Part shown: positions 548 through 62,121 of the stretch, piece after piece
Layout of the letters: each line of letters starts with the position of its first letter
Position numbering within the stretch: position 1 is the stretch's first letter
Source of the DNA: Malacoraja senta
Lineage: Eukaryota
DNA length: 64,000 bases
Direction: 5' to 3'
Assembly: GCA_038087875.1 (NCBI GenBank)
Contig: CM075988.1
Span: forward strand, 8,558,001-8,622,000
Translations under genes and position numbers: made by a program
The notes under the pieces: model-generated
What the model saw: the letters and a program-made list of their open reading frames with translations, nothing else
Database searches by the model: none
Told to the model about the DNA's origin: nothing

Positions 548-665
548 GATGCTGGAAAAATCGAAGGTAGACAAAACTGCTGGAGAAACTCAGCGGGTGA
601 GGCAGCATCTATGAAGAGAAAGAATAGGTGACGTTTCGGGTCGAGACCCTTCTTCAGACTCTATT
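530..665 (-). mobile_element. Solo PLE terminal repeat (pLTR) with hammerhead core
   Basis: Matches the 3' end of the PLE at 55200-55334 in reverse. Flanked by 12-bp direct repeat CAGTGTGTATAT (518-529, 666-677). Confidence 0.8.
630..657 (-). ncRNA. Minimal type I hammerhead ribozyme core (PLE-associated)
   Basis: Minus strand reads CTGAAGA-A-GGGTC-TC-GACCC-GAAAC-GTC: CUGANGA box, stem II, GAAA box and GUC triplet with palindromic ACGT stem III. Confidence 0.7.
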
Positions 666-684
666 CAGTGTGTATATATATACA

Positions 685-884
685 NNNNNNNNNNNNNNNN
701 NNNNNNNNNNNNNNNNNNNNNNNNNNNNNNNNNNNNNNNNNNNNNNNNNNNNNNNNNNNNNNNNNNNNNNNNNNNNNNNNNNNNNNNNNNNNNNNNNNNN
801 NNNNNNNNNNNNNNNNNNNNNNNNNNNNNNNNNNNNNNNNNNNNNNNNNNNNNNNNNNNNNNNNNNNNNNNNNNNNNNNNNNNN
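685..884. other. Assembly gap (200 N)
   Basis: Run of exactly 200 N. The round length indicates a scaffolding spacer rather than an estimated gap size. Confidence 0.99.
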
Positions 885-3800: not shown

Positions 3801-4532
3801 ATTGAGGGGTCAAGGAGAACTGGAGATGAGACTTGGGTCTGATAAGCATGGTGTAGGAAAGAACTGCAGATGCTGGTTTAAACCGAAGATAGAGACAAAA
3901 TGCTGTAGTAACTCAGCGAGACAGGCAGCATCTCTGCAGAGAAGGAATGGGTGACGTTTCGGGTTGAGATCCTTCTTCAGACTGATAAGCCTTGATGATA
4001 TTGAATGGTGGGGCAGGCTTCAGCGGTCGAGTGGCCTTATTCTACTACTATTTTCCTGTGTTTCTATAGATGGACCCAGGGCACCATTGATATTGCACAC
4101 ATTTTCAGTGTTAGAGATCTGAAGATTTCAGGTATGTCAGTAACTGGAGTAAATTTAAGAGATGAAGATGAACAAGGTCACAAGAAGGCGAGAAATGAGG
4201 TGTAGAAAGATGGGAATTCACGCAGGGGTGGAGTTGCTGCCTTACAGGGCCAGAGACCCGGGTTCCATGGTGCATGGAGTTTGTACACTCTTCCTGTGAC
4301 CACGTGGATTTTCTCCAGTGGCTCCAGTTTCCTCCCACACTCCAAAGACGTACAGGTTTGTAGGTCAATTGGCTTTGGTAAAATTATATATTGTCCCTTG
4401 TGTGTAGGATGCTGTTACTGTATGGGACGATCACTGGTCGGCGCATATTGGGTGGGCCGAAGGAACAGTTTCTGAGCTTATCTCTAGTCTAAAGTCTAAG
4501 TTCAACGTCATCTAGTGAAGTTCCATGTATAT

Positions 4533-4725
4533 AGACACAAAATGCTGGAGTAACTCCGGGGGACAGGCAGCATCTCTGGAGAGAAAGAATAGTCAGTTTG
4601 AAGAAGGGTCTCGATCCGAAATGTCACCCATTCCTTCTCTACAGAGATGCTGCCTGTCCCGCTGAGTTACTCCAGCATTTTGTGCCTATCTTCAGTTTAA
4701 TATCAGCATCTGCAGTTACTTCCTA
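4533..4725. mobile_element. Fold-back (inverted) pair of PLE pLTR fragments
   Basis: GACACAAAATGCTGGAGTAACTC...GGCAGCATCTCTG is followed by its reverse complement, with a decayed hammerhead core between the arms. Confidence 0.8.
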
Positions 4726-6659
4726 CGAGGCTCCATGTAATGTGGACATATCTGAGATATTAACCGGACATTAAGCGAAATTCAGTTGGGGAAAGGAACT
4801 TGCAGGTCCCAGAGTTAGGAACATTTAACCACATCCCCTTTTCCTTTGAGTAAAATGAAAGGATATGTCCATCAGTGGGCTGCTTGCAAGAATGCAGAAC
4901 GTCACAGGGTGTACACAACAACTCATTCAGCAAGTGCCTGTTGGTGTCGAGTCTCAGGCAGTGGGAATGGTTTAAGTTGTGGGTGGAGGTAGCCAGATGA
5001 GAACCAAAGGAAGTGTGTAGGATGGAACTGCAGATGCTGGTTTACAATACGATACGATACAATACGATATGATAGAACTTTATTCATCCCCGGAGGGAAA
5101 TTGGTCTGCCAACAGTCACAACACACAACAAGGTACACGAAAACTTGAAATTAAAATAAAAGTTAGAAAAAAAAGAAAAAGACAAGCGACTGTTGTCTGG
5201 CTGCCTTGTGCACAGCGCCTAAAATGGAATGAACGAATAAACAAACAAACAAACACAGACGTGTCCCCTGGGCAGAGGATTTAAAAACTAGAGTGCCCAA
5301 CCTTCCCCACACCGAGCCCCCCTTTGTTCTCCCACCGTCCCTCACGGCGGTCTCCCCATGCCGGGTCCTCCATTGTTCATCACGGCGGTCCTCCCACACA
5401 GACCAATTGTCTTCCCCTCCCCCCTCACGCTCATCGAACGCTGATCAAGGGTCGATCACGAGCGCCCATCGCCGAAAGTAAACACAAAATGCTGGAGTAA
5501 CTCAGCGGGAGAGGCAGCAACTCTGGAGAGAAGGAATAGGTGACATTTTTCGGGTTGAAGCTAAAGCAGGGTCTTGACCTAAAAAGTCACCCATTCCTTC
5601 TCTCCAGAGATGCTGCCTGTCCCACTGAGTTACTCCAGCATTTTGTGTCTTCCTTCGATGAGAACCAAAGGAAAATGAGCTTGTGTGCTCCTCCCAGTGG
5701 CTGCCTCAAGAACTGTCTACTGGAATTTGTTCCAAATTGGGGGGGGGGATAATTTTTTTTTAAATAATTGATTTTTAAATGAAACACCAGATTGTAAGCC
5801 AAGGCTATTTCAGAAATACACGGCAATGAGTAAATCTGTGGCAGATTTATTATTTGACAATCTTTTTCAAAGATCTCAATCAATCCTTTTACATTTCTAG
5901 CAACGTTGTTGCTATGGACTTGTGGCTACAATCAATTTTGATAAACTTGACTGTCAATCTCTTCTCCCGTTCCCTCCTCACCCTCCCCCCACTCCATTTA
6001 CATGCAGAGAAATATCTGGTCACCTCACAAGTTTTCTGCATGATAATACCCTTTTGAACACACATGATGGAGTTTCTCTCTCTCTCTCTGGTTTAATATC
6101 GCAGGTTGGAGTTTGATTGCATTAGTCAGGACAGGTTCATTTATTTCTGCAGAGTCTCCTGAGATTGGTGGCCTTTGTGAGTCGGTCAGGTGACTGACAC
6201 ATTGGTTATAGGCATGGCCAGTTCTGAAGAGAACTATTCAGGAGCGGTTTCGTTTCAATCAGCTGAGAAATGTTGATTAATTTTTCGAAAAAGTGAATTG
6301 GAGAGATCTTCTAAGATAGTTGGAGGGGAGATGGAGCAAATGTGTTCTACCACACTTTCCTCTCCTGTCCTGAAGGTGCGGAATCTTTCGGGGACAGGAC
6401 CTAGAATCAAAAGTCCGCCCGCTATTTCAGGTGGATGTAAATAATCCCAGAGCATCATTTAAAAAGGATTTCTCTAAGGTGTGCGAGCCATCGATTCAAT
6501 CTTCGATCACAACCTTTGAAGTAGATTATTTGATCAGTGTCATGTAGCCTTTTGTAAGACTATGCTGTACATTGGCTGCTGTGCTTTCTAGAAAATGCAA
6601 AGAGCAGGGGAGGTACAGTCAAGGTGGCTTAAATGTTGTGAGTAATGAGCACTTTGACC

Positions 6660-6870: not shown

Positions 6871-8095
6871 GGCGTGGATGAGAAAGTAGAACGAGTATGA
6901 ACAGATGATCGATGGTCAGCATGTACTTAGTGGGCCGAAGGGCCAGTTTACATGCTGCATTTCCAAACTAAACTAAAGTATTCTTCTCTTAAAATCTAGA
7001 TTTTGTTTCACATGGTGAAGTACCTAATAATGTACCTACAAGCCCAGAGCTAATGGTGAGGATGGAGAAACTTGAGGGTTAAAAAACACTTGTGGTCAAT
7101 GTTCAGTATTGTTTCACTCCCCCGACGTAAAATCCAGATGACGTGATAAAGTAACAGTTTCATTTTGCATCCATTGTTATCTTTGCTGGCAATTGAACAA
7201 AGCAAAGGTAAAAGTCAATGGATGTGTGCAACCATGAGGAAATAACTGGTGCCAACTACCATTTCCTCAGAGGCTGTTATAACTGTACAAACTGAAGATA
7301 GACACAATTAGCTGGAGTAACTCAGCAGATCAGAGACGATCAATTCGAGACCCGAAACGTCACCTATTCCTTTCCTCGAGTGATGCTGTCTGACCTGCTG
7401 AGTTACTCCAGCTTTTTGTGTCTATCGTCGGTTTGAACCAGCGTCCGCAGTTCCTTCCTACACGTAACTGTACAAACACCCTCCGACCTACGATAGACGT
7501 AGATCGGCAGAAGGATGCACGCCATAGAAAGTGTCCCAATAGTGAGACGGAACTCAAGCCAGCAATGGTGGCAGTGCTTACCCAGAAGGCTGTGCGCCGC
7601 AGAAAGTGCTCTGGACATAGCCTGGTGCTGCTGAATTATTTAATACTCTCAGTGAGGCTTTTCGGGAAGGGGATGGAGATGGTGTTTCCGACTTAAGTAA
7701 AATCTGACTTACATAACCCTGACAGAATGTAACCCTGACATAAGTCGGGAAGTGCCTGTATTGTGGATCAGACCTTGTATGTCCCCAATGTCTTCCAGTC
7801 CTTCACCCAACCCTGATCTTTGCTCAGTTTCATCACATATCACTAGTAGATGTCCCCTCGGCTGCCAAGACAACAAGACATAATATAGAACTTTATTTAT
7901 CCCAGAAGGGAAATTGGTCTAAATAAAGTTCTATCGTATTGTATCGTATCGTTATCGTAGTCAATAAGTTCTTCACCTTCCCACCACTCTTTCCTTTTTT
8001 ATATTCCACGAAACTTAGATGGGCACAAATAGCTGGAGTAATTCAGCGGGACAGGTAGCATCTCTGGAGAGAAGGAATGGGTGACGTTTCGGGTT

Positions 8096-8625: not shown

Positions 8626-9035
8626 GGTTGAGACACTTCTTCATCCCACAACCACAAAACTTAGACCACTGACAAGCATTTGATCATCTGTGTAGGAAGG
8701 AACTGCAGATGCTGGTTAAATCGAAGATAGACACAAAAAGCTGGCAGCATCTCTCTACACCATCGTCTATATCTCCCGTTTCCCTTTCCCGTGACTTTCA
8801 GTCTGAAGAAAGGTCTTGACCCGAAACGTCACCCGTTCCTTCTCTCCAGAGATGCTGCCTGTCCCGCTGAGTTACTCCAGCTTTTTGTGTCTATACTGTA
8901 TTTGATCATCTCGTTCATTATTTTGTGTTCTGTGTCAAATTTTGCTGGGTAAAGTTCCCACGAAACACATTGTTTAATTTACAGTGCTCAGAGGTGCTAT
9001 GCAAGTTATTGCTACCATACTAACCAACCACCAGT

Positions 9036-9064
9036 CTGAAGAAGGGTTTCGGCCCGAAACGTTA
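9036..9064 (+). ncRNA. Minimal hammerhead core in solo pLTR (9033-9128)
   Basis: CTGAAGA-A-GGGTTTCGGCCC-GAAAC-GTTA, the same variant as the core ending the long PLE at 55207. Confidence 0.6.
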
Positions 9065-12000
9065 CCTATTTCCTTCGCTCCATAGATGCTGCTGCACCCG
9101 CTGAGTTTCTCCAGCATTTTTGTGTACCAGTCTGGACTAAGCTGTCCAGGAATATTAAAGCTTAAAATGGATAGCCACGGTTAATTTCCCAAGCGCGTGC
9201 CTGCAATAAGATGTCTAGCCTGTTAAAGTGGAACCACAAACCGCATCTGCCAGTCTCTTTCCACAGCAAGCCAGATATCACAAACAGTGTCCTTAAAACT
9301 CCTCAACTTAAATAAAAGCCCACTAAATCTGTTCTGTCCATGTACCTGTCTAAATGTTTCTTAAACGCTATGATAATACCTACTTCAACTACCTCCTCAA
9401 GCAGCTCATTCCATACACTCGCCACACTTTGTATAAAAAAGTTACCCCTCAGGTTCCTATTATATCTTTCTCCCCCTTACCTTAAACATATATCCTTTGA
9501 TTCTCAATTCCCCTACACTAGGCAAAAGAGTACTCTAGGCATGTGTCTACTCAAACTATTCCTCTCATGATCTCATCTATTCCCCCTATTCCTTTCAGTA
9601 AGATTTTCAATCATCACCATACAATGATCACCTCATGACCTTGCACCCTCTTCTGCCTCATACGAGCGTTATCTCAGGCTGGGAAGATGGTGTTTATTGC
9701 AGATAGACCTATCCTTAAAGGCATTTGTATGTTCCTGGGGCTCTTTTCCTGAAGTGGAGTTATGCAGTGTACACAAACTGCGCTGTACTTTGGCAACCAT
9801 GCCTTAAGCAGGCTGTTTACAGACAGGACTCAGCTGGAAGCCCCTTAAGACCTCTTATCCTCGGAGTCCGCTCCTTCCTTTCTTTTGTGAATGTATCATC
9901 CTGCGAACAATGGCAAGAGACAGACGTGGTAAATTGGCGTGTGATCAGTGACACTCCTACTGATTGTCTCCCTTTACCTCCAATATCATGGACCCAGATG
10001 GCTTAATACATAATGTAAGAGTAGGCTGGGGGTTTATAATTGGTTTCCATTGTTTCACAGCCAGTCATGGCCACCCCATCTCTCTCATCCCCTATTAACT
10101 CCGGCACAAACACTCCTTCTACTTAATTAAGCTCAGCTTTGATGGTCTCCTTCGCAATGAGCTTCCGTCCCCAAACCTGCCACACACACATGGGCTTCTA
10201 CCTGTTACCCGTTCTCCCCTCGCTCCTCATTCACCTCCCACTGGGGTGGCAGCTGCCAGCGAGCGTGGGCCCCGGAGGGAGAAAGTGATATATGTTGTTG
10301 GGAAACAGTCTTTTAAAAGATGCGCAATGGGATCTTAATACACCCCAACTGCTAATCTGTTTTTTCGCACGTGCGGCCTCTCCATTGTTTAAGCCATTTC
10401 TGATGGTTTTTTGCTTTCACTTTTCGCCGGGCTGTAACTTGCAGTCCCTCTGTTTGTGTTAGCAAGCAGCTGCATCCGAACATATGTTTTAGTTATTGTA
10501 ACCTCTGCTGACCTGCCAGTTATAATTAGAGGCTTCTGCTTCTCCCCATTGTTGGGGAGTACTTGCAGTGTTGTTTTTATTTGTTCTCTTGCTGTTTGGC
10601 TGACAATTATTTGAACATCTTGGCTCAATTATATGATAAAAAAAAGAGCTGGATTTGACGTGCCTCTTTAACAGTCATTTTCATCGACTGAACTCTTTTA
10701 ATAGTACATTTCACCCCGAGTATTCTTTTCATTGTGGAATCTTGTCACGGGAACTTTTCAATACTGATTCACCGCTTGAATTCCTGTGATGCAGAATCAC
10801 CATTCAAACTGCTTTTGACACTTAATCATAATGACAATACCTTTTCATATTGAAGCTCTTCGTAGGGTAAAATTTTTAATATTGCATCACTATTGTGGCT
10901 ATCTTTTATACTAGAAGTCTCATTTATTTTGGGGAAGTACTAGGGAGATTCTTTTTGTTAATCGATGGACTATTCTTCCCACACTCTCATTGTTCATGCA
11001 AGAAGTGACTGGAGGATTTTTGGATCACTAAGGATGGGACGATGGGTGCTTGGATATTTTTTGAAGAGCTGGGTTTATTAAAGGGGGCGCGTCACTTCTA
11101 TGAGAAGCAAGAATAGACAAAGAGAAGCAAGGAACTGCAGATATCGGCTTACAAAAAAAAAAGACTCCTGCTACAGATACACACAACATGCTGGAGTAAC
11201 TCAGCGGGAAAAACATGCATCTCTGGAGAGAAGGAATGGGTGATGTTTTGGGTCGAGACCCTTCTTCAGACTGGTCCTTTAGTCTGAAGGTGGGTCTTGA
11301 CCTGAGACATCACCCTTTCCTTCTCTCCAGAGATGCTGCCTGACCTGCCGAGTTACTCCAGTATTTTGTGTCTATCTTCGGGGTCAACCAGCATCTGCTG
11401 TTCGTTATTAAACGTTATGTATCCATGTTCTCCAGAGATGCTGCCTGACCCACTGAATTACTCCAGCACTTTGTGTCTTCTTTTTGCACGGAGCGAGTAG
11501 CACTGAGAGGAGGGAACCCATTAAGTGTCATTGGCGATGATACTCGTTGAAAATGCACCCAAAGGTTTTAACCAGCAGGAGGGGGTTGCTGCAGTAACAC
11601 ATGCCAACAACTGCTCATCCTCCTTAACCTGAAATATTCTCCATCATCACCTGAGTACCAGGGAAGCTCATATACACAATGCAAGACCTTTGCGAACAAT
11701 CACACCTCACCAGAATTCTAAACTTCCATCTGAAGTCCATCCTGGCACATAAAGCAAATAAGAGTACAGGCCATTCAGATCCTTTAGTATCTTCCAGCAA
11801 AGCAACAGCTTTAGCATCGCTATCTATTGAGAAGCACAGCTGGGGGAGAGGCGGTTATAATGCGAACCCAAATAAAAATAAGGGGACGTTTCACAGGGAA
11901 CTGGGTGACAAGCAAAGAAATTGGAACTTTGACTTTGAAAATGGCAGCAAAACATGGTGGCGCCAGCATGTGTAAATATGCAAAAAGAATAAGAATAAAT

Positions 12001-13135
12001 AAAAACAAAGAACCATTGAACGATTGAAAAATGAAGTGGGCAGGTTTGCCTTATCATTTGTATTGCCAGCATCTTAAGCGTTCGCAATGGTTCAATGGTA
12101 CTTTTTGGTCACATGTATCGAGGTACAGTGAAATTTCTTATTTTTGCATACAGGTATTAAATCATCCTTACATTCACATTTAAATCATCCTTACATTCAG
12201 ATATTATTTATTCGAGATCAAATATTTCTGCGTAAATAGTTAAACCAGTACTTCCAGTAGATTTATACAATGCTCTTTCCACGTTGTACTAATGATTCAT
12301 CAGCGTAAAACTTAAATCATCAAAAGTGACCATCTTTACAATTCTAAAACAGCAACATGGAAAAATAAGATGTGCTGTATAGATAGACACAAAAAACTGG
12401 ACTAACTCAGCAGGTCAGACAGCATCTCCGGATAAAGGGTCTGAAGAAAGGTCTTGACCCTAAACATCACCTATTCCTTTTCTCCAGAGACGCTGGCTGA
12501 CCCGCTGAGTTACTCCGGCTTTTTGTGAATATCTTTGGTTTAAAGCAGCATCCACAGTTCGTCCCTACACATGTACTGTATTGGGTCCTTTGGAAAGCTA
12601 TTTGTATTTGCTGAGATTCTGGCTAATATTTATTCTGCAATCAACATCAATGAAATAGCAATGAACTGACTATTATCTCAACACAATTTCAATGATCTTT
12701 CTTGCACAAATTCACTGTCACATTACAATAATGATTAAGTTACTTATCGGCTATCGTGGGATGCCCAGAGGTACTGAGAGTATTGTAACTCTTTACAAAG
12801 CCTTTAACAAAGAGCAGATCATTGAATGCATCCAAATGTACATCACTGGTGGCAAACATTGCAAATTCTGCCAAGTAACTCTCAGTGCACCTCGCAAACA
12901 ACAGTTTTCAAAATTGTTAATTGTTCCCTTTCTGACAGACAAAGTTACAGAACTAATTTAGTTATAGAGTCATAGTCAAGAGTCAAGAGTCAAGAGTGTT
13001 TTATTGTCATGTGTCCCAGATAGAACAATGACATTCTTACTTGCTGCAGCACAACAGAATATGTAAACATAGTAAACAATATGATAAACAAGAGGAAAAA
13101 AAAGTACAGTGTGTATATGTTTAAGAAAGAACTGC

Positions 13136-13315
<180 letters not shown>

Positions 13316-26758: not shown

Positions 26759-26761
26759 AAA

Positions 26762-27480: not shown

Positions 27481-27526
27481 ACCGAATGGGAACTGTCCCA
27501 CACCTTCTGTTCAGCCTGGTCAGGAC

Positions 27527-33099: not shown

Positions 33100-33506
33100 G
33101 TGTCGGGTACTTTTCGACGCTGCCGTTCCGGCGCCGCCGATTCGGCGCTGCCGTTTTGGCGCCGCTGTTTCGTCGCCTCCGTTTATAATATCTGTACTCA
33201 TCAGAACCCTAACCCTAACCTCTGTAAATACCTCCAGATAAATAAAAGTGTTCCATGCGTCACAATACTCCGGGATAGTGAATTCCAGAGATTCATCACC
33301 CTCTGCAAGAAGTTCCTATGCCAAGGATATTGCAAGTGAGATCAGCTTTATGTTAACAAGTTTGGAAATCATTTTCCACTGGCCCACCGCTGTGGCACCC
33401 TAACCCTAACCCATACCCTAACCCATACCCTAACCCTAACTCTAACACAAAACAGCGGTGCCCAAACGGCAGCGCCGAAATGGCGGCGCCGAATGGTACC
33501 ATTCTG
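33100..33506. mobile_element. Non-autonomous DNA transposon with 8-bp TSD and internal (CCCTAA)n tracts
   Basis: CTTTCAAA at 33092-33099 and 33507-33514. GC-rich subterminal inverted repeats. Telomere-like tracts at 33205-33220 and 33397-33446. Confidence 0.7.
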
Positions 33507-34659: not shown

Positions 34660-34960
34660 AGTTTAGTTTAGAGATACAGCACGGTTACAGGTACTTCTGT
34701 CCACCGAGTCCGCGCTGACCAGCGATCCCTGCACACGAATGCTATCCCACACACACTAGGGACAATTTACAATTATACCAAGCCTATTAACCAACAAGAC
34801 TGCACGTCTTTGAAGTGTGGGAGGAAACCAAAGATCCCGGAGAAAACCCACGCAGGTCACGGGGATATTGTGTGCAAACTCTGTACAGACAAGCAACCAT
34901 AGTCAGGATCGAACCCGGGTCTCTGGCGCTGTAAGGCAGCAACTCTACCACTGCGCCACC
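34660..34960 (-). mobile_element. HE1-like V-SINE
   Basis: A box (TGGCGCAGTGG), B box (GGTTCGATCC), V domain and CR1-like tail on the minus strand. Confidence 0.85.
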
Positions 34961-48325: not shown

Positions 48326-49990
48326 AGTCACTCTACACCTCCATCCCCCACCAGGAAGGCTTTAAAGCCCTCCGTTTCTGCCTTGACCAAAGAACCATCC
48401 AATTTCCATCTACTAACACTCTACACCGCCTAGCGGAGTCCTAGCGGAGGGAGCTGGTCCTCACCCTCAACAACTCCTTTGACTCCTCCCATTTCCTCCG
48501 TCCAAGGGGTAGCTATGGGAACCCGCATGGGCCCCAGCTATGCCTGCCTCTTTGTAGGGTACGTTGAAGAATCCCTGTTCCAGGCGTACACTGGCCCTAT
48601 CCCCGAACTCCGTTACATTGATGACTGCATCGATGCTACCTCCTGCACCCATGCAGAACTCATGGACTTCATCAACTTCCCCACCAATTTTCATCCTGCA
48701 CTCAAATTTACTTGGACCATCTCCGACACCTCCCTCCCCTTTCTTGATCTTACTGTCTCCATCACAAGAAATAGACTATTGAATGACATCTATTATAAAC
48801 CCACTGACTCCCACAACTATCTCGACTACACTTCTTCCCACCCTGCTTCCTGCAAAGACTCTATCCCCTACTTCCAATTCCTCCGTCTACGCTGCATCTG
48901 ATGAGGTGTTCCATACTAGAACATCCGAGATGTCCTCATTCTTTAGGGAACGGCGGTTCCCCTCTCCCATCATAGATGAAGCCCTCACTCGTGTCTCCTC
49001 GGTACCCCGCAATTCTGCCCTTGCTCCCCCTCCCCCTACTCGCAACAGAGACAGAGTCCCCCTGGTCCTTACCTTCCACCCCATCAGCCGTCGCATACAA
49101 CACATAATCCTCCAAATTTTCAGCCACCTCCAACAGGATCCCACCACTAGCCACAGTTTCCCATCTCCACTCCTTTCCGCCTTCCGCAGAAACCGTTCCC
49201 TCCGCAACTCCCTGGTTAACTCATCCCTTCCCACCCAAACCACCCCCTCCTCAGGTACCTTCCCGTGTAACCGCAGAAGATGCAACACCTGTCGCTATAC
49301 CTCCTCCCTCGACTCTGTCCAGGGATCCCGGCAGTCCTTTCAGGTTAGGCAGAGGTTCACTTGCACCTCCTCCAACCTCATCTACTGTATCCGTTGTTCA
49401 AGATATGGACTCTTATACATCGGCGAGGGAAAATGCAGACTGGTCGATCATTTCGCGGAACACCTTCGCTCAGCCCACATGAGCCAACCTGATCTCCCGG
49501 TTACTGGACACTTTAATTCTCCTTCCCATTCCTACACAGGCCTTTCAGTCCTCCGTCTCCTCCATTGTCAGAGTGAGGCTAAATGCAAATTGGAGGAACA
49601 GCATTTCATATTTCGCTTGGGCAGCTTACAGCCCAGTGGTATGAATATTGATTTGTCTCACTTCAGGTAGCCCCGGCATTCCCTCTCTCTCTACCCCTCC
49701 CCCACTCAAGTCACACTAGCTTCTCGTTTTCACCCTACAAACAGCTTACAATGGCCTATTTCCTTTATCATTGTTACTTTTTTGCATATCTTTCATTCAT
49801 TGTTCTTTATCTCTCCACATCACCAACTATATCTCTCGTCTCCTTTATCCCTAACCAGTCTGAAGAAGGGTCTCGACCCGAAACATCACCCATTCCTTCT
49901 CTCCAGAGATGCTGTCTGTCCCGCTGAGTTATTCCGGCTTTTTGTTTTTATCTCCAGTTTAAACCAGCATCTGTAGTTCCTTCTTACAAA
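48326..49990 (+). mobile_element. Decayed, 5'-truncated PLE (RT C-terminal half, GIY-YIG, pLTR)
   Basis: QGVAMGTRMGPSYACLF, RYIDD, LPFLDL, YKPTDSHNYLDYTSSHP and NLIYCIRC...YIGE...FAEH, with several frameshifts. pLTR at 49856-49990. Confidence 0.92.
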
Positions 49991-51904
49991 CTCTGCTGCA
50001 CGGCTGACTTACATTGAATGTACCAGCCGAATCTGCATGGGAGATAAGGACTTAATGTTAATTACTTCTTGTAATTAACTTTTAATAACGTGTAGAATTG
50101 TTAATTCCTGCCAATCAACCAATCACACGAAAAATATAACTAAGTATGCCGTCTCAGGTTTTTAACTAAGGATTGATTTTTGGGTACACAGGAGACACAA
50201 GGAACTGTAGATGCTAGTTTACAAAAAAAGACACAAAGTGCTGGAGTAACTCACCGGGTCAGGCAGCATCTCTGGAGAACATGGATAGGTGACACAAAAA
50301 TCTGGAGTAACACAGCGGGTGAGACAGCATCTATGGAGAGAAGAAGTCCCTTCTTCATTATGAAGAAGGGACTCGACCCGAAACGTTGCCCATTCCTTCT
50401 CTCCAGAGACGTTGCCTCACCCGCTGTGTTACTCCAGCTTTTTGTGTCTACCTTCGATTTAAACCAGCATCTGCAGTTCTTTCTTGCACATGGATAGGTG
50501 ACATTTCAGTGAGAGGCACTCTCACAGGTACCACTATTTTCAAAGTAGTAAACTACCTCTTCTTACACCTTCTGTTTTTTCATCTCTGGCTTTTGTCCAA
50601 CCATCGGCCTATTACCCACCCTCCCATCCCCCTCCCTTTTACCTGCATCCACCTTTACCTGCGAGGTTTGTCCTGCCCTTCCAGCTTTCTTGCTTCTCCT
50701 TTTCACCCACAATCAGTCCAAAGAAGTGTTCCGGCCTGTAACATCACCTATCCATGTTCTCTAGATATGCTACATGAATAGTACTTTGTGTTACTCCAGC
50801 ACCCTGTAATGTTTTTTGAGAATTTGAAAATTGCCAAGATTGAAAATTTAATACATTGCTCTAGTTTTTTTTCACTCTTAATCCAGCCTTTCGTTTCACA
50901 TATTCCTCTTTCTACACCTGCTGGACACAGAATTCACCCACTCTAATTGCAACTTCTCCAGTTAATTTCTCAGTCTTTCACTTGGAGGTTAGACACAAAA
51001 TGCTGGAGTAACTCAGTGGGACAGGCAGCATCTCTGGAGAGAAGGAATGGGTGACGTTTCGGGTCGAGACCCTTCTCCAGTCTCAATCCATCAGTAGGGC
51101 CATTTTGAAATATTATTATTTGAAGCAATCAGCTAATAATTAGTCAACTGAAAATGGTTAAGCATAAATTTCAACTTAAATTGTACTTGGAAGTTCTCTC
51201 CTTTGTAACTGTGTCTGAATGGTGGGGCAGGCTTGAGGGGCCGAATGGCCTACTCCTGCTGTTATAACAAGAGCTTCATTGGCTGGGGAATGCACTGTTG
51301 TTCTTGAAAGCATGTAGATAAATGAAAGTTTTGCTGCTCAGACACTGGTTGTGATTAATGAACACTAGCATGTCACTGTGTAATTGAAAGAGTTGATTAA
51401 TTTTATCTGGTTAGATGCTGCTGGGGTACAAAAAGATGGATGAAACCAGTCATCCATAGCTTTTCCAGAAAGAAAAGTCTCGTAGCTAAACACCAGTGGT
51501 CTTTTGTGGTTCAGTTTGATCAGCACTCCTGCCCCTCAGTGAGCAGGCTGGGACTCGTATCCATTCTAAAGATTTGGATATCAACTTCTAAGTTTACGCC
51601 CCAGTGTAGAGGGAGTGTTTCTTTATACTTTAAACTTTAGAGATACAATGGAGAAACAGGTCCTTCGGCCCACTGACAAACCCGTACACTAACATTATCC
51701 TACACACACGAGGAACAATTTGCAATTTTTACCGAAGCCAAGAAGATCCACCTCTTCAATAAAAGATTCCTGGCCCACCTCAACTCCACCAAGGACCTTA
51801 AATTAGCCCGCCTCCAGGCCGCTCCCGCCGCCGACTCTCCGCGACTCGACCGCCCGCTGGCTCCGGGCCCCAACTCCGGCCCGCATCGCCTGCCCCGGTC
51901 CCGC

Positions 51905-52114
51905 GACGCCATCTTGTCCACGGGGAGCGACTCCAGTACTCACCAGGACGCCATCTTGTCCACGGGGAGCGCCTCCAGTACTCACCAGGACGCCATCTTG
52001 TCCACGGGGAGCGCCTCCAGTACTCACCAGGACGCCATCTTGTCCACGGGGAGCGCCTCCAGTACTCACCAGGACGCCATCTTGTCCACGGGGAGCGCCT
52101 CCAGTACTCACCAG
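51905..52114 (+). repeat. Five tandem 42-bp units in the PLE N-terminal linker
   Basis: GACGCCATCTTGTCCACGGGGAGCGCCTCCAGTACTCACCAG x5; one substitution in unit 1. In frame (DAILSTGSASSTHQ). Confidence 0.97.
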
Positions 52115-52736
52115 GAAGTCGCCTTCACCGACCTCCACGTCAATGCTGCCGCCGACCTTCACCTGCCTACCGATGACGCCCAGGCTCGCCGCTTCTACGG
52201 TAACTCGGACTTCCTTCCCCTCGCCGATTCCTCCGAACCTCGCCGCCCCCCGGGACCTCCCAGCATCGCCGCCGGACCGGGCCCATCCAGCATCGCCGCC
52301 GGACCGGGCCCACTCTACACGGCCGCCGGACCGGGGATCCACGAACTTGGCCGCCGCACCGCACCCTATTCACCCCGTCGCCTCACCGGACTGGTCGAAC
52401 CGCGCCGCCCCACCGACCATCCGCCTACCGGGACCTCCCACGCATCGCCCGTGGACCCCGACTCTACTGCCCACCTACCCCGACCATCGGGTGCGCCGAC
52501 CCTCGCCACTGCAACGCCCTCCAGCCCCACCGACCCCGACTACACTGCCCACGGACCCCGACCGTCGGGTCCGCTGACCCTCGCCACTGCACCTCCCTCC
52601 AGCAGCCCGCAGCCGTCGCCTTACCTGCAAACTGGACTCTGTACTGGGCCTGAAGCCTCCACGCTGTTCACTCCCACTCTCCTGGGTTTGACTCCACTGG
52701 GTCCTAGCGCTAGTCTGCCTAGCCCTGGTTATCTCA

Positions 52737-55090
52737 GTGGCAGTTCCACTGATTCTTCCCCATCCCTCTCCAACTATGGGACCACTTCTCTTCCACACCC
52801 ACACCACTGCCCTCTCACCCCCCCACCCCCTGACCACCCACCACACATCGCCTCGTCCCCATTACACCCACCTGCCTTCCTCCGGCCCCAACCCCCATCC
52901 CTGCCGGGTGTTCACCATCCCCCCCGACCTCCCCCTCTCCGACATCGAACGGTCTGTCCTCAGCAGAGATCTTACCTTTGTCCCCCTCCGTCCCCATCTC
53001 AATGAGTTCCGTGCCCTCCATGACTTGGAACGCTTCTACCGTCGCCTCCGCCTCACAGCTCACTTCCATGGGAAGCAGTCCTCGCTCCCCACTGATGACC
53101 CCTTTTCCCGTCTCCAACGCACCCCATCCTCATGGAACCCCCCTCGCAGCCTTCCGGCTTTAGAACTCTTTATTAAAAACTGCCGCCGTGACATCAACCG
53201 CCTCAACTTCTCCACTCCCCTGTCTCACTCCAATCTCTCCCCCCTTGAACGCACTGCCATCGACTCACTCCGCAACAACCTAGATTGGGTTATCAAACCC
53301 GCCGACAAGGGAGGTGCCGTGGTAGTCTGGCGCGTCGACCTCTACAAAGCTGAGGCCACGCGCCAACTCTCGGACACCTCTTCCTACTTACCCCTGGACC
53401 ATGACCCCACTGACGAGCACCAGGCCACCATCTCCAGCACCATCACCAACTTCATCCACTCCCACGCCCTGCCCGAACGAGCCTCCAACCTCATCGTTCC
53501 CCAGCCCCGCACAGCCCGCTTTTACCTTCTCCCCAAAATCCACAAACCTGACTGTCCCGGTAGACCCATTGTCTCTGCCTGTTCTTGCCCCACCGAACTC
53601 ATCTCCACCTACCTCGAATCCATACTATCCCCCTTGGTTAAATCCCTCCCCACCTATGTTCAAGACACCTCAGACACTCTCCGTCATCTCCGCGCATTCC
53701 ACTCTCTAGGCCCTCACCCCCTCATCTTCACCATGGACGTCCAGTCACTGTACACCTCCATCCCCCACCAGGATGGTCTCAAAGCCCTCCGTTTTTTCCT
53801 CGACCGTAGAAGCAATCTATACCCGGCCACTGACACCCTCCTCCGCCTAGCGGAGCTGGTACTTACACTTAATAACTTTTCATTTGACTCCTCCCATTTC
53901 CTCCAAATACAAGGCGTAGCTATGGGCACACGCATGGGCCCCAGCTACGCCTGCCTCTTTGTCGGGTACGTAGAACAATCCCTGTTCAATGCGTACCAGG
54001 GCCCCATCCCCGACCTCTACCTCCGCTACATCGATGATTGTTTTGGTGCCACATCCTGCACCCACACACAACTGACTGACTTCATCCGCTTCACCACCAA
54101 CTTCCATCCGGCACTCAAATACACCTGGACCATTTCCGACACTTCCCTACCATTCCTTGACCTCACTATCTCCATCGCAGGTGATAGACTCCTTACCGAC
54201 ATCCACTACAAACCTACCGACTCCCATGGCTATCTGGACTACACTTCTTCCCACCCTGCTTCCTGTAAGGACTCCATCCCCCACTCCCAATTCCTCCGTC
54301 TACGCCGCATCTGCTCCCAGGATGAGGCGTTCCACACCAGGGCATCTGAAATGTCCTCATTCTTCAGGGAACGGGGGTTCCCCTCCTCCACCATAGATGA
54401 GGCTCGCACCAGGGTCTCTGCCATACCCCGCAACACTGCTCTCTCTCCCCATCCCCCCACTCACAACAAAGGCAGAGTCCCCCTAGTCCTCACCTTTCAC
54501 CCCACCAGCCGTCACATACAACAAGTGATCCTCCGTCAGTTTCGCCACCTCCAACGTGACCCCACCACTCGCCACATCTTCCCATCTCCCCCTATGTCTG
54601 CCTTCCGCAAAGACCGCTCCCTCCGTAACTCCCTTGTCAATTCTTCCCTTCCCTCCCATACCACCCCCTCCCCTGGTACTTTCCCTTGCAACCGCAAGAG
54701 ATGCAACACTTGTCCCTTCACTTCCCCCTCCACTCCATTCCAGGACCCAAGCAGTCGTTCCAGGTGCGACAGAGGTTCACCTGCATCTCCTCCAACCTCA
54801 TCTATTGCATTCGCTGCTCTAGATGCCAGCTGATCTACATCGGTGAGACCAAGCGGAGGCTTGGCGATCGTTTCGCCGAACACCTCCGGTCGGTCCGCAA
54901 TAACCAACCTGAACTCCCGGTGGCTCAGCACTTCAACTCCCCCTCCCATTCCGTATCTGACCTCTCTGTCCTGGGTCTCCTCCATGGCCACAGCGAGCAA
55001 CACCGTAAATTGGAGGAAATGCACCTCATATTCCGCTTGGGCAGTCTACATCCTGGTGGCCTGAACGTTGAATTCTCCCAATTCTGCTAG
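52737..55090 (+). pseudogene. PLE reverse transcriptase plus GIY-YIG endonuclease, frameshifted near 54725
   Basis: IKPADKGG, YLLPKIHK, GRPIVS, MDVQSLYTSIP, GVAMG and YLRYIDD in ORF 52737..54833. LIYCIRC-x-YIGET-RF.EH-HF-E in ORF 54686..55090. Confidence 0.92.
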
Positions 55091-55206
55091 CCCTGGCTGT
55101 CCCCTCCCCTTCATCAGCCATCTGGTTGTCTCCTCCCCTCCCCCAGCCCTCGGGCTCCTCCTCCGCCTTTTCCTTTTTTCCTTTCTTCTCCCCACCCCCT
55201 ATCAGT

Positions 55207-55235
55207 CTGAAGAAGGGTTTCGGCCCGAAACGTTA
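55207..55235 (+). ncRNA. Minimal hammerhead core in the pLTR of the long PLE
   Basis: CTGAAGA-A-GGGTTTCGGCCC-GAAAC-GTTA, about 115 nt downstream of the ORF stop on the sense strand. Confidence 0.65.
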
Positions 55236-56574
55236 CCTATTTCCTTCGCTCCATAGATGCTGCTGCACCCGCTGAGTTTCTCCAGCATTTTTGTGTACCT
55301 TCGATTTTCCAGCATCTGCAGTTCCTTCTTTAACAACCGACATCTTTGGAGTGTGTGAGGAAACCGGAACACCCGGAGAAAACCCACGCAGTCACATGGA
55401 GAACGTACAAACTCCGTACAGACAGCACCTGTGGTCAGGATAAAACCCGGGTCTCTGGTGCAGTAAGACAGCGATTCTACTGCTGCGTCACTGTGCCGAC
55501 CCACATCTCTTTTGAAAACATAGAACATACAACAGTACAGCACAGGAACAGGCCCTTCGGACAACAATGATCGTGCCGAACATGATGTCTGAAGAAGGGT
55601 CTCGACCCAAAACGTCACCCATTTCTTCTCTCCAGAGATGCTGCCTGTCCTGCTGAGTTACTCCAGCATTTTGTGGCTATGCAAACATAAACTAATCTCC
55701 TCTGCCTGCACATGATCCATATGCCTCAATTCCTTGCATATCCATGTACCCATCCAAAAGGCACTTAAATGCCACTATCACATCTACCTCACCATTGGTG
55801 GAAAACCCGGGGGGGAGGGGGGCAGGGGGGACGTGTCCCCTCCATGTTTTCAGAGGTGGGGAACGGTCCCCCTCACGTTACAAGCTTTAAATCTGTGGTA
55901 CAGATCTGCAGTAATTGACTCATTCTAACGGTAACGGCCCCGTAGTAAAAGCATCCACGTCGCGGGGCTGGAAACTGGAAGAATCCCGAGCTAATTACCG
56001 TTCACAGGGCGCACGGCTGAAGCTTCCGATGCCTCGCATGTGTGTGTGAGTGTGCGCACGGAGGGGACCGGGGGACAGAGTGTCCCCCCTGTCCCCCGGT
56101 CCCCTCCATGTTTTGAAAGCAGTTTCCTCACCACCACCCTTGACACTCTTGGCCGCTGTAAGCATCAGTAGTACCAGGGCTGGAGCTGATGGCAATGTGA
56201 GGAGAATAGAGATTAGTGTAGATTTAGTGTAATCAAGTGCTTGATGGTCGGTGTGGACTCAGCGCACCAAAAGGCCATCTGATTCTTGACCTGTGACCTA
56301 TGCACTCTATCGCTTCTTCAATAGCCATCATGAGGTCAGGAAAGGTGTTAAACAAGTGCAACCCTTTTTAATTACATCTTGAAAAGAGGCAACAAAAAAA
56401 TCCAATGCATGTGATCAGAAAGATGCAGCTGGAAATGTTCTAATGACTGGTGATGTCACTACAATTGGTCCCAGTGCCTTGGGCAAGGAAGGGGCAAGAA
56501 ATCACACAGTCACGTTCCCTGGTCTTTATTGCAGACATGAAGAAAAGTGTATTCTGACTTAGATCTGAAGAAGG

Positions 56575-56880
56575 GGGCGGCTAATGGCGCAGCGGTACAG
56601 TTGCTGCCTTTACAGCACCAGAGACCCGAGTTCGATCCTAACTACGGGTGCTGTCTGCACGGAGTTTGTACCTTCTCCCCGTGACCACATGGATTTTCTC
56701 CAGGTGCTCCGGTTTCCTCCCACATCCCAAAGATGTACAGGTTTGTAGATTAATTGGTTCGATAAAAATTGTAAATTGTTCCCAGTGTGTAGGATAATGC
56801 TAGTGTACGGGGAATCACTGGTTGTCGCAGACTCGGTGGGCTGAAGGGCCTGTTTCCACACTGTATCTCTAAAGTCTAAA
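56575..56880 (+). mobile_element. HE1-like V-SINE
   Basis: A box TGGCGCAGCGG, B box AGTTCGATCC, V domain GGTGCTCCGGTTTCCTCCCACATCCCAAAGA, CR1-type tail. Confidence 0.88.
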
Positions 56881-57681: not shown

Positions 57682-58570
57682 AAGCTTGCAGATGACATTA
57701 AAGTGGGTGGTATTGTAGATAGGGAAGATGGTCGTCAAACATTGCAGCCAGTTCATGATCGGTTGGGCAGGTAGGCTGAGGAATGTTTTGATGGAGTTTA
57801 ATGTGCGTGGTGTTGCATTTTGGGATGTCTAACCAGGGCAGGACCTACATGGTGAATGGCAGGGCTCTAGGGAGTGTTGTAAAGCAGAGGGTTCTGCAAT
57901 GCAGGTAGATATTTCCTTGAATGTGGCATCTCAGACAGATGGGGTGGTCAAGAAGGCTTTCGGCCCATTGGCCTTCATCAGTCAGAGTATTGATTATAGA
58001 AGTTATCTTACAGTTGTACAAGACATTTGCACAGTCACATTTGTGTTCAGTTTTGGTCACCCTGTTATAGGAAAGATGTTGTTACGATGGAAAGGGTGCA
58101 GAGAAGTTTTATGAGGATGCTGCCAGGACTCGAGGGCCTGAGCTCTAAGGAGAGGTTGAGCAGGCTAGGACTTTATTCTTTGGAGAGCAGGAAGATGAGG
58201 GGTAAACATATAGAGGTGTTTAAGATCATGAGAGGAATATATAGGGTAAATGCACAGTCTTTTACCCAGAATAGGGAATCAAGAACCAGGGGACATAGGT
58301 TTAAGGTAAGGGGGGAAAGATTCAATAGGAACCTGAGGGGCAACGTTTTTACACAAAGGGTGATTGGTATATGGAAAGAACTGCGAGAAAAGGTCGTTGA
58401 GGCAGGTACTATCACAACATTTAAAAAACATTTGGACAGGTACATGGAAAGGATAGATTTGGAAGGATGAGGGCCAAACGCAGGGAGGTGGGACTAGTGT
58501 AGATGGGGCATGTTGGTCGGTGTGCGCAAGTTGGGCCAAGGCGCCTGATTCCACGCTGTATGACTGTATA
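57682..58570 (+). mobile_element. CR1-clade LINE, ~0.9-kb 3' fragment
   Basis: Starts near a decayed (F)ADD motif (GCAGATGAC). CVQFWSPCYRKDV...ERVQRSFMRMLPGL...FTQRVIGIWKEL, then the 3' tail. Confidence 0.9.
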
Positions 58571-59987
58571 ACTCAGCTTGTAAGGCGGCATCTCTGGAGA
58601 ACAAGGATAGGTGATGTGTTTTGCACTATTATTGTTTGTTTGTTTTTATGTGTATGTATATGTGTGTATATATGTGGTGTCAAGGAAAGAGCGTTCACGT
58701 CGTGGCCCTGTTTCCACCAATCTTTCCACCATCACGCACAAGAAGCACAAGAAGCGACAAGACAGGCACCATTCAGCTCTGGCAGAACAACTTCTAACCT
58801 TGTGTGTGGACTCGATAAGAAGAAGTTTTCTGTTGTGCTGCTGCAAATAATAATTTCATTGTTCTGTTTGGGACTTACGACACTAAAACACTCTTGACTC
58901 TTGATCAATCATCAAGTACTCTCAAGGCTAAGATAGGCGATTCGAAGATATCAGGTAATGTGGATGAAGCAGAGACTCAGCACGATCGTTGAGCAACGGG
59001 GCAAGCTTGTGGCTGAAGAGACTGCACTTTCTTCATTTCCTTTTGCTCCTATTTCTCCGCACAGTCTGCTGCACTGACAATCGAAGGAAATATTCCTTTA
59101 AACATAAAAGAATCCCATCATCGGTATACATGTTAATAAGGATATTGAGAGAAGGTTTCCCATTACGAATCACAAATCCAATCCCGTATTCTGAGATAAG
59201 TATTTGTGAGATTATTACGTTTGTCAGAATACTTAGAGGTTTTGTTTGATAGAGCCTATAAATTGAAAGTGTAAATTCAGTTACTCACATCCATTTACCT
59301 TTCACGATGGTACAATCTATCACTGAATGAAGAAAATTGATACCGGAAAAAACGTAAGTTATAAAAGACCGTGCAATATGGTCTGGCATCTGCAGCCTAT
59401 TTTGGCTTTGGACAATAAATCCTACCGACTCTGGGATTTCATTAAATGCAGTATTTATAGGAAGGAACTGCAGATGCTGGATGTACATCGAAGAACGACG
59501 CAAAATGCTGGAGTACCTCAACGGGACAGGCGGCATCTCAGGAGAGAAGGAATCGGTGACGTTTTGGGTCGAGACCTTTCTTCACACGTGTCTATCTTGA
59601 TTAGATGCAGGTTGCTCATTGTGTAGGAGAGTCATAAAGCACAGAAACAGGCTCTTTGGCACAACTTGTCGATGCTGACCAAGTGGCCCATCTACAATAG
59701 TCCATTTGCTTGTGTTTGACCCATATCCTTCTAAACCATTCCTACCCATATACCTGTTCAAGTGGCATTTAAATTGTTATTGTAGCTGACACAACCATAT
59801 CCTCTGGCAGCTTGTACCATATACGTACCACCCTCTGTGTGAAAAGATTGCCCATTACCATCCTATTAAATCTTTCCCCTCTCACTTTAAACATATACTC
59901 TCAACTTCTTGATTTCCCTACTCTGGGAATAAGATGGTGTGCACTTACCCTATCTAATCCCCTCATGATTTTATACACCTCTATATA

Positions 59988-60338
59988 CACCCAATGGTAT
60001 GAATATTGATTTATCTAACTTCAAGTAACCCTTACATCCCCTTTCCATTCCTCCCTCACCCAAGTAATTGTACTAGTTTTCAAAGTCATCATCTTGAGTC
60101 TCATTGTCTGTAACTCATTTTCACCTAGCCCACAGCTAATAATGGCCTGTTTCCTTTTTAATCATTACTTTTTTGCATATCTTTCATTTATTTGTTCTAT
60201 ACCTCTCTATATCACCACTTATATCTCTCCTTTCCCTTTCCCCTGACTCTCAGTCTGAAGAGGATTCTCAACCTGAAACGTCACCTATTCCTTTTCTCCG
60301 CTGACCCGCTGAGTTATTCCAGCTTTTTGTGTCTACCT
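59988..60338 (+). mobile_element. PLE 3' fragment (end of GIY-YIG, 3' UTR, pLTR)
   Basis: Collinear with 49632-49950 (GGTATGAATATTGATTT...CAGTCTGAAGA). Confidence 0.8.
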
Positions 60339-62121
60339 CTTATCCACCTCAGCCTCCTGTGCTCCTCCTGACAACATCTTCCCTGCACTCTTTCCAGCTT
60401 AACACTATCCTTTCTATAGCAGAGTGACCCGAACTAAACACAATACTCCGAATGCGGCCTTTGCAACATCTTATACAGTACACCTGCAATAATATATTCA
60501 ACGTCGATACTTAATGCTCTGACTAATGAAGACCATTGTGCCGTAAGTATCCTCCCCCTCCCACCTATATCACTTTTCTGGCTTTACATTTTGCTCCACT
60601 TCTCTCCTTATCTGACACCTTTTTGTCAATTTCTTAAACTCCAGCCTTTGTCACTGACTCCACTCATCTGCAAATCAAACACTCCCTCACCTGTACCCAG
60701 CTATCATTTGCTAGGCTTTCTCCCGACCCCAGCTATCTCTTTCCCTATTACAATCAGTCTGAAGAAGGGTCCTGCTCCTAAGACATCTGTCCATTCCCTT
60801 CACGGACACTGCCTGACCTGCTAAGTTACTCTCGCACTTTGTGTTTTGCCAAAAGTAGATATTTATGGGAATGGTCTCTGCAACGTCTTCCCACTGAAGC
60901 TGCCTTGCCGCCAGCCTTTTCCGCATTTTCTGTTTTATATCAGTGTTCACTGTGGTTGATTTAGGTTTCAGTGAGCTAGCAAGAACAAAACTGTTAGAAG
61001 AAATGAAGTGCCAGGTCTACCGTGATTTATCTTTCCCATTTCGCACTTTAAGCCAGACTTTGATCCAGATGACCTTGACCAGTACAGCCCAGTACTGCTG
61101 TTTTCATCTTTCCACCAGCATGTAGTCAGAAGTCAATCACCAGCAGTACACTTCAAAGGATCCTCAGCTTCCTGCAGTTATGACATTGGGTTGCCTGAAG
61201 ACATCTTTTCTTCAGATTTCTAATTATTTTCAGACTTTCCACCACTGATTATCTGAAAATGTTTTCAATGGGAACACAAGCTTGTTAGCAGGCATAGCTG
61301 GAAGAGCTATTCTTGAAATCTGGCTGCAGTGCAATGATCTGACGAGAGCTGCCAAGGTAAATCACCTTACATTTGCAAGTAATACATGACTTGGTTGATG
61401 AAGGTGTATATGTGTCGGCTCCACTCTAACAGGAGACAGAGCAGAAGCCAGAAGAGGAAGAAGCAAGCAGAGGGACATCTGCAACAAATGCAGGGGCTGC
61501 AAATAATCACCGCAGCATTCGTCCACAAGGTGGCTATTTTTTCTGGCCGCTTTATTAAGTGTGCATGATGAATGAAAGATACAGAAACGTCAGATATTCA
61601 ATGATTCGGTGATTCACTGATACTTTATGGTCACATCTACCTAGGTACAGTGAAATATTTTGCATACAATCTGGTAAAATCATACAGCAGACTTCACCTA
61701 GGCAGTACACCAAGAGTCGCCACATTTCTGGCAACGACAAAGTTTCAAGTTCGAAGTACAGTCCTATCTTCTCGCAGCAATGAACCAGGCCTGCCATCGC
61801 ACATGGCCACCGGTAAGTTTAGTTTATTGTCACGTGCACCATGAACAGTGAGGTACAGTGAAAAGCTTTTGTTGCGTGCTAACCAGTCAGCAGAAAGACA
61901 ATACGTGATTACAATCGAGCCATTCACAGTGTACAGATACAGGATATAGGTATTAACGTGAATAATGTTTAGTGCAAGATAAAGCCAGTAAAGTCCGATC
62001 AAAGATAGTCCAAGCGTCTCCAATCAGGTAGATAGTCGTTCAGGACTGCTCTCTAGTTGTAGTAGGATGGTTCAGTTGCCTGATAACAGCTGGGAAGATA
62101 CTGCCCCTGAATCTGGAGGTG

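Follow-up and report, generated by a model that had tools for sequence, protein, structure and literature searches.

Minimal hammerhead ribozymes in the pseudo-long terminal repeats (pseudo-LTRs) of Penelope-like elements (PLEs) have been known since 2014, when thousands of dispersed single motifs per genome were attributed to truncated PLEs, with close opposite-strand pairs and few motifs in full elements (Cervera and de la Pena 2014, PMC4209133). Among PLEs, inverted ends and tails are the norm (Craig et al. 2021, PMC8557442; PMC8969392). In Poseidon PAc, the ribozyme was dispensable for insertion and inactive without protein, and no RNA-seq reads ended at its cut site (Frangieh et al. 2024, PMC11167929). 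A study of non-LTR retrozymes that sampled a single chondrichthyan found their units there as well (Li, Clavereau and Pollet 2026, bioRxiv 10.64898/2026.07.22.740005). Statements on these and other papers refer to the sections drawn on here. We analyzed a 64,000-nucleotide stretch of the Malacoraja senta genome (GenBank assembly GCA_038087875.1, contig CM075988.1, positions 8,558,001 to 8,622,000, forward strand; henceforth the window, numbered from its first letter), in which a short repeat, henceforth the unit, begins with such a hammerhead and closes two coding PLEs, PLE-A and PLE-B. We consider it probable that the dispersed copies of this unit arose as short cDNAs when PLEs reverse-transcribed uncleaved RNA; the ends of the copies point to uncleaved RNA as the template and to a fixed 5' boundary at the ribozyme edge.

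A hidden Markov model (HMM) of the unit, built from 16 window copies, detected 60 copies in the window and none in the reversed window that served as control. The copies group into 45 loci and cover 5852 bases (9.1% of the window). At this abundance of one copy per kb, the copy ends provide a test in vivo of the model derived in vitro in 2024. Two unit lengths occur, about 95 bp and about 135 bp. A preliminary description of the window, made from its letters alone, had correctly recognized the unit as real and abundant, but its figure of about 35 loci is too low, lying near the 34 copies that cover the ribozyme core, and its single length of about 130 bp covers only one of the two classes. All four of its example motifs were recovered by a strict scan, at 630-657 on the minus strand and at 8803-8830, 9036-9063 and 55207-55234 on the plus strand. 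Representative loci, with their target-site duplications (TSDs), are as follows.

529-660, minus strand: solo long unit (ribozyme, body and tail); motif 657-630 intact in sequence; TSD 518-529 / 666-677
3851-3984, minus strand: solo long unit; core intact, stem II with 3 of 4 pairs; 9-bp TSD 3839-3847 / 3982-3990 overlapping the first bases of the unit
8689-8905, no single strand: head-to-head pair of a minus arm with tail and a plus arm without tail, with a piece of 3' untranslated region (UTR); one 12-bp TSD (8678-8689 / 8900-8911) encloses both arms; in motif 8803-8830 the first stem II pair (G10.1-C11.1) is an A-C mismatch
9030-9134, plus strand: solo short unit with motif 9036-9063; 9-bp TSD 9030-9038 / 9126-9134 overlapping the 5' end of the unit
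11123-11483, no single strand: head-to-head pair; both arms begin at the 5' edge of the ribozyme, both cores are broken, and a third partial copy lies next to it
42609-42890, no single strand: head-to-head pair; both arms begin at the 5' edge of the ribozyme and have 7 non-consensus bases in common, including a core mutation (A6)
2137-2286, 4527-4727, 5471-5667, 7268-7464 and 12380-12571, no single strand: other head-to-head loci
37343-37441, 40065-40214, 41005-41182, 43480-43710 and 50196-50490, no single strand: other head-to-head loci

TSDs of 8-12 bp are found at five of these other ten head-to-head loci. Overall, direct repeats of this size flank 11 of the 37 loci of at least 85 bp, compared with 5.9% of 438 mismatched control pairs, and the 12-bp TSDs already reported for some units are borne out at 518/666, 8678/8900 and 37332/37438. 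Of the 45 loci, 13 are head-to-head and none is tail-to-tail. Six of the 11 TSDs enclose an entire head-to-head pair, and one pair therefore represents one insertion. Arms of one pair are more alike than other copies are (mean percentile 0.83, p=0.0002; 13 of 14 pairs were testable).

The 3' ends of the copies are bimodal, with 23 of 60 at model positions 94-107 and another 23 at 131-139; the stretch between the two groups is the PLE tail. By hand count, 10 of 13 pairs join a long to a short arm, a weak excess over the half or so expected for independent arms. The 5' ends were assigned to classes by hand from alignment ends and flank inspection: 12 copies extend into pyrimidine-rich, UTR-like sequence, 21 stop at model positions 5-10, next to unrelated sequence, and 27 are scattered inside the unit. 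Thus 21 of the 48 within-unit 5' ends fall in 6 of 108 positions (p=2e-14 against a uniform distribution). A and G occupy model positions 6 and 7 in 22/26 and 28/30 copies, respectively. Within 2 nt of the cleavage site, on the other hand, one 5' end was observed against 1.3 expected, so cleaved RNA is not a detectable template. CCAGCAT occurs twice in the unit (55257-55330 and equivalents), 12-25 nt before each of the 3'-end groups; a single upstream segment could pair with either copy, a predicted fold contains this pairing for the tail, and the two sites may define two start sites of reverse transcription.

Sequencing runs were searched for reads that leave the unit. Run X23 is polyA RNA from a related organism, sampled at about 6%, with ends listed from one fifth of the local depth upward; X1 may be the source of the window itself and is then not independent, X16 is RNA by guess only, and X21, with 4 reads, is uninformative. 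Among the best 18 of 3581 rows, loose ends with low-agreement flanks stand before 55204 and 55205 in X23 (526 and 587 reads), X1 and X16. Loose 3' ends with unrelated flanks lie behind 55335 in X23 and X16, and behind 55291 and 55300 in X16. Unit depth is 4-9 times that of the best open reading frame (ORF) bin in three runs, a ratio that is not a copy number. In X23, reads from the two strands of the unit are about equally numerous. PLE coding RNA at 53000-55130 is strand-biased about 2-4 to 1 in the same run, the first mate lying on the plus strand, which in most stranded libraries denotes antisense RNA.

As the preliminary description had it, the unit terminates both coding PLEs (49857-49989 and 55204-55335), and it does so in two ORF-end remnants as well. 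In the PLE-A copy the motif lacks the stem III palindrome. The PLE features, with the reverse transcriptase (RT) domain where it is kept, are listed below.

48268-49670, plus strand: PLE-A coding region (RT-linker-GIY-YIG), 5'-truncated and broken, with 77% DNA identity to PLE-B
49671-49989, plus strand: PLE-A 3' UTR, pyrimidine-rich, with terminal unit 49857-49989 (core letters intact, stem III palindrome lost by G16.2 to A)
51677-55090, plus strand: PLE-B coding region, 5'-truncated, in three overlapping frames; RT (PF00078), CX4CxxC linker, GIY-YIG (PF01541)
55091-55203, plus strand: PLE-B 3' UTR, pyrimidine-rich as far as the CAG preceding the ribozyme
55204-55205, plus strand: site at which short copies preferentially begin (A and G, located 3 and 2 nt upstream of C3), in an initiator-like or splice-acceptor-like context
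55207-55234, plus strand: PLE-B minimal type I hammerhead with core, extra A, 4-bp stem II and tetraloop, and loopless palindromic stem III; cleavage triplet GUU, predicted cut 55234/55235, stem I of 2 bp
55297-55335, plus strand: optional tail, about 35-40 nt long, separating the two 3'-end groups
59986-60367, plus strand: remnant of a PLE-A-type ORF end with UTR and unit; core intact, stem II with 2 of 4 pairs
39888-40544, minus strand: remnant of a further PLE family, with ORF-end fragment 40544-40479 (weak match, tblastn E=0.005), leader 40362-40213, nested inverted pair 40065-40214, and unit 39998-39888 with intact core

Pfam models place an RT (PF00078, E=2e-06, just under the curated cut-off) before a C-terminal GIY-YIG domain (PF01541, E=1e-04), and a CX4CxxC linker separates RT and endonuclease in both PLE-A and PLE-B. 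By this linker motif, both coding elements fit the Neptune/Nematis type. A total of 2093 homologues were found, the nearest named relatives of PLE-B being cartilaginous-fish proteins (bamboo shark, devil ray; 64-73%), and no relative of the RT was found among viral contigs. The proline-rich N-terminal linker of PLE-B contains in-frame tandem repeats at 51905-52116, 52260-52335 and 52454-52603 (42 bp x 5 at 99%, 27 bp and 78 bp).

The following mechanism probably generated the copies. The unit forms the final 95-135 bp of pseudo-LTRs belonging to several endonuclease-bearing PLE families, its first 30 nt being the hammerhead. The PLE protein would nick both target strands about 8-12 bp apart, as the TSDs indicate, and cDNA would be primed inside the RNA at either of the two sites that bound the tail, a mechanism taken from Frangieh et al. 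(2024). Reverse transcription would run through the ribozyme on uncleaved RNA. cDNA made on one strand would leave a solo unit, and cDNA made on both strands a head-to-head pair within one TSD. Many cDNAs would end 2-3 nt before the core, from which we infer that the template RNA begins there, at a putative RNA polymerase II start in an initiator-like context. Inserted copies would decay neutrally, fastest at CpG sites including that of G12. The context of the A at 55204 matches what we take to be the vertebrate initiator consensus, and an RNA start at this A would be the simplest cause of the 5' pile-up. A downstream promoter element at the Drosophila spacing was rejected by inspection, being 3 nt off.

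In its strictest form, which we put forward as tentative rather than probable, this mechanism places the ribozyme at the very 5' end of an RNA initiated in the pseudo-LTR, and priming about 95 or 135 nt downstream, so that short copies would be run-off cDNAs and pairs would arise from two strands primed at different tail sites. If so, the short copies would be the PLE counterpart of retroviral strong-stop DNA, and transposition at full length would depend on either a template jump or a tandem RNA made by read-through. The hammerhead fold would then act as a protein-gated 5' element instead of a cutter, and genomes of this kind would amount to a vast in vivo archive of the PLE reaction.

Several observations weigh against this origin of the copies by PLE reverse transcription. 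No pile-up of RNA starts is seen at 55204 in the polyA RNA run, which comes from another organism, and a cut affecting fewer than one fifth of the molecules would escape its listing. Longer templates exist, because 12 of 34 copies reach UTR-like sequence. In Drosophila virilis, the transcription start lies about 120 nt upstream, and an intron ends at the ribozyme (Schostak et al. 2008, PMC2377424). PLE-A and PLE-B are both 5'-truncated, and no full-length element with a 5' pseudo-LTR was found within the window. Since the HMM spans the unit from the 5' boundary to the tail, both pile-ups lean on flank inspection and loose ends. Three of the 13 pairs, by the same hand count, do not combine one long with one short arm, and the likeness of arms could stem in part from later gene conversion. 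Finally, the non-CpG positions of the core show a lower raw mismatch than the body (23/367, 6.3%, versus 204/1883, 10.8%; p=0.008). This raw excess of conservation was rejected because the comparison columns in the body hold most of the subfamily differences. In a corrected test on 31 copies, with 3 deleted or chimeric alignments dropped and subfamily-diagnostic columns set aside, mismatch was 21/306 (6.9%) in the core and 103/1315 (7.8%) at other positions (p=0.63); tree-based counts gave p=0.13. The core of the copies thus shows no excess conservation in the test that the preliminary description had itself proposed, and constraint therefore acted on the source elements while the copies decay neutrally.

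Among the alternatives, a dedicated non-autonomous family survives best, although we judge it unlikely. The short units would resemble short interspersed elements (SINEs) or miniature inverted-repeat transposable elements, be transcribed internally or by read-through, and be moved in trans; this differs from reverse transcription of the RNA of coding PLEs only in the loci supplying the RNA. The sharp common 5' end, the units' own TSDs, the lack of an adjoining ORF end in 56 of 60 copies, the excess depth over ORF bins, the several subfamilies and the unit RNA on both strands all agree with such a family. However, the young solo copy 9032-9128 is identical over 97 bp (100%) to the coding PLE-B end at 55203-55299, UTR-like leaders occur in every subfamily, four copies do join ORF ends, and no tRNA gene was found in the window. 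The preliminary description had concluded from the TSDs that the units are mobilised in trans. The TSDs are real, but the conclusion does not follow, because a short cDNA of a coding element's own RNA would also acquire one; TSDs are uninformative on cis versus trans, and both sources may operate.

Somewhat more doubtful is that the 5' boundary is made at integration, with the endonuclease or microhomology resolving the junction at a preferred pseudo-LTR site. Three TSDs overlap the first 3-7 bases of their unit (3982, 9030 and 40549), and endonuclease-mediated resolution has been proposed for the tail (PMC8557442). Yet in 11123-11483 and 42609-42890 both arms end at the boundary with no target DNA at the junction, and microhomology would be expected at any 5' junction.

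A splicing origin of the boundary has still less in its favor. The CAG before the ribozyme would be a 3' splice site, the boundary being set by spliced RNA with varied upstream exons or by an arrested intermediate, and splicing could exchange the 5' strand of stem I and so turn the ribozyme on. A pyrimidine tract with CAG is present in both coding elements and in the UTR-bearing copies, the A and G at model positions 6 and 7 also fit exon-end bias, the unspliced stem I is only 2 bp, and D. virilis Penelope offers a precedent (PMC4209133). Against this, neither the window copies nor the loose ends share an upstream exon (agreement 0.32-0.36), and in five solo copies the TSD directly adjoins the unit or lies no more than 12 nt from it. 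No joint into 55206 is present among the best 15 of 415 joints, none of seven GT[AG] sites in 3' parts gives a longer stem I, and YAG is missing in 15 of 17 scored invertebrate relatives.

As for the motif itself, on its anatomy and homology it is the published minimal type I PLE hammerhead with loopless stem III, in agreement with the preliminary description. It reads C3-U4-G5-A6-N7-G8-A9, an extra A, a 4-bp stem II with a 4-nt loop, G12-A13-A14, the loopless stem III ACGU, H17 and a 2-bp stem I. The core boxes CUGANGA, GAAA and UH represent the majority base at every core column. The nucleotide following A9 is A in 31/34 copies, G10.1 occurs in 32/36 and C11.1 in 32/43, and the same holds in relatives. 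The palindrome ACGU is the majority form of stem III and is kept in 14 of 15 aligned sequences, with one compensatory change; in many window copies it is broken through CpG decay. Stem I measures 2 bp, as claimed earlier, in all seven window copies scored, compared with a median of 4 in 15 relatives (typical families have 4-5, the D. virilis variant 2). Two further details of the preliminary description had to be amended: stem II is present, but as 4 bp with a 4-nt loop and not as 5 bp with a 2-nt loop, which to our knowledge cannot form, and the triplet given as GUC is GUU in the PLE-B family. By inspection, a second NUH just before the 5' boundary was ruled out, as it cannot form helices I and III.

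Homologous loci agree with this assignment. From 80 loci with homologous RTs fetched from metagenomes, 38 motif matches were obtained, including a clear coding-strand group located 419-828 nt beyond the RT match; some of the loci repeat the motif as inverted upstream copies. Covariation was assessed in 15 hand-chosen sequences, 11 of them relatives and 4 window copies, with the presence of stem II as a selection criterion. In this set, 90.5% of cells pair, compared with 66.7% in shuffles (0/500) and 23-44% in slid controls, and 37 cells changed on both sides. Since the set was chosen for stem II, stem I is the unbiased part of the test, and all four stem I pairs show two-sided changes. A scan of the window with Rfam covariance models, a check of the kind proposed earlier, yielded 20 matches at E up to 5, none of them a hammerhead, and the exact 25-nt motif was not found in viral or metagenome contigs. 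MicroRNA-like Rfam matches at 5496-5633, 7296-7427 and 40076-40166 were rejected, as they are inverted unit pairs. In seven relatives the ORF starts 3 to about 990 nt from the ribozyme; in three related PLE loci (L048:1875, L056:1370 and L065:19) a hammerhead variant with another stem III sequence lies about 990 nt upstream of the ORF start. The PLE hammerhead at L059:3268 combines a 5-bp stem I with a palindromic stem III of 6 nt, and the double hammerhead is its predicted minimum-energy dimer.

Most copies in the window are broken and unlikely to cut RNA. The core is covered by 34 of the 60 copies; all core letters are kept in 8 of these 34, and the helices also in five (529-662, 3851-3988, 9029-9127, 39888-39998 and 55200-55335). 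G12, the general base of the hammerhead (PMC6155905), lies within a CpG and is changed in 17/42 copies, in line with the CpG decay noted before. Nearest-neighbour folding, which leaves out magnesium, tertiary contacts and protein, gives stem II a probability of at most 0.05 in seven intact-core window copies, compared with a median near 0.9 in 15 relatives, because the segment downstream of the cut site base-pairs with the core and with the 5' strand of stem II. For dimers, the double-hammerhead fold is less favourable than the best fold by a median of 26.8 kcal/mol, versus 14.5 in relatives (p=0.001). The ribozyme would seem to be kept only in source elements, where it is predicted to be off unless protein refolds it. 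The window contains no consecutive intact tandem units and no tandem array, and the very high density of self-cleaving sites proposed earlier does not hold, with 5 of 60 copies keeping core and helices, none of them in tandem, and with unfavourable predicted folds. In the polyA RNA run no position, the cut site included, shows a pile-up of RNA starts or ends, so the read ends anticipated after the cleavage triplet are not listed there; low-level cutting stays possible because of the 6% sample and the one-fifth threshold. It is thus very improbable that the copies are active ribozymes cutting host transcripts, or retrozyme-like units moving via circular RNA: five copies are sequence-intact, two close same-strand pairs (8803 with 9036, 55207 with 55589) could form a double hammerhead, and PLE hammerheads cleave weakly as dimers or with protein (PMC4209133, PMC11167929, PMC6765202), but 52 of 60 copies are without an intact core, neither copy ends nor RNA ends are in excess at the cut site, and no read-supported circular joint is found among the best 15 of 415 joints in the RNA run.

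Units are also inserted in other units or in leaders: 40549-40656, flanked by a 9-bp TSD, sits in an older unit's tail, and an inverted pair has entered a leader in the region 39999-40362. An assembly gap of 200 N (685-884) begins 8 bases past the TSD of the first unit. Besides PLEs, the window carries an LTR retroelement at 27482-31920 on the plus strand, whose LTR-like sequence reaches about 32580. Its gag contains a SCAN domain and its integrase precedes RT and RNase H; it is broken into three frames, and its domain order is presumably that of the Gmr1-like Gypsy lineage. At 33112-33493, short interstitial telomere-like CCCTAA runs (33204-33222, 33397-33446) lie beside 14-bp GC-rich inverted tandem repeats, possibly a small non-autonomous element. 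Many short SINE-like repeats and 3' ends of CR1/L2-like long interspersed elements (LINEs) occur at 34787-35230, 35995-36402, 55340-55500 and 58000-58470; we take them to resemble the elasmobranch HE1 SINE and HER1 LINE, as candidate names only.

As a ribozyme finding the window carries little weight: minimal hammerheads scattered by truncated PLEs were already described in 2014, and the majority of the window copies are dead. It carries modest weight for PLE biology, namely for the formation of pseudo-LTRs, inverted ends and tails and for the role of the hammerhead. In the literature consulted, from which repeat databases and several supplements were left out, neither this family in cartilaginous fishes nor the 5' pile-up is described.

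Compared with the minimal hammerheads of Cervera and de la Pena (2014), the unit has the same core boxes, extra nucleotide after A9, G10.1-C11.1 pair and loopless stem III, and the window likewise holds dispersed motifs, opposite-strand pairs and few copies in full elements. It differs in stem II (4 bp, versus 7-8 in the Schistosoma mansoni families) and stem I (2 bp, versus 4-5), and neither a 5'-end pile-up at the ribozyme edge nor cartilaginous fishes are described in the main text portions of that paper. D. virilis Penelope also has an AG just before the ribozyme, and its pseudo-LTR can act as an internal RNA polymerase II promoter; there the start lies upstream and the AG is a proven splice acceptor, whereas start and acceptor are both putative here (PMC2377424). 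Animal non-LTR retrozymes are, like the unit, pseudo-LTR-derived non-coding hammerhead units with many monomers. Unlike it, they need at least two consecutive tandem units with complete hammerheads, which the window lacks, its pairs being inverted (Li, Clavereau and Pollet 2026). The coding elements agree with the endonuclease-bearing Neptune and Nematis PLEs of Craig et al. (2021) in RT with C-terminal GIY-YIG, a CX2-5CxxC linker, heavy 5' truncation, an inverted 5'-truncated copy at the 5' end, a 30-40 bp tail often at one end only, and a pseudo-LTR hammerhead, while differing in that strong microsatellite targeting was not seen here and the TSDs are clear and 8-12 bp long. PAc of Anolis carolinensis belongs to a different clade, and stem II of its ribozyme already marks the start of the ORF, whereas the window unit opens no long frame; the main text of Frangieh et al. 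(2024) does not treat short run-off copies or their 5' boundary. In both systems, however, RNA ends at the cut site are not seen, and, as proposed for the window, two internal start sites of reverse transcription bound the tail of PAc and both target strands are cut and extended (PMC11167929).

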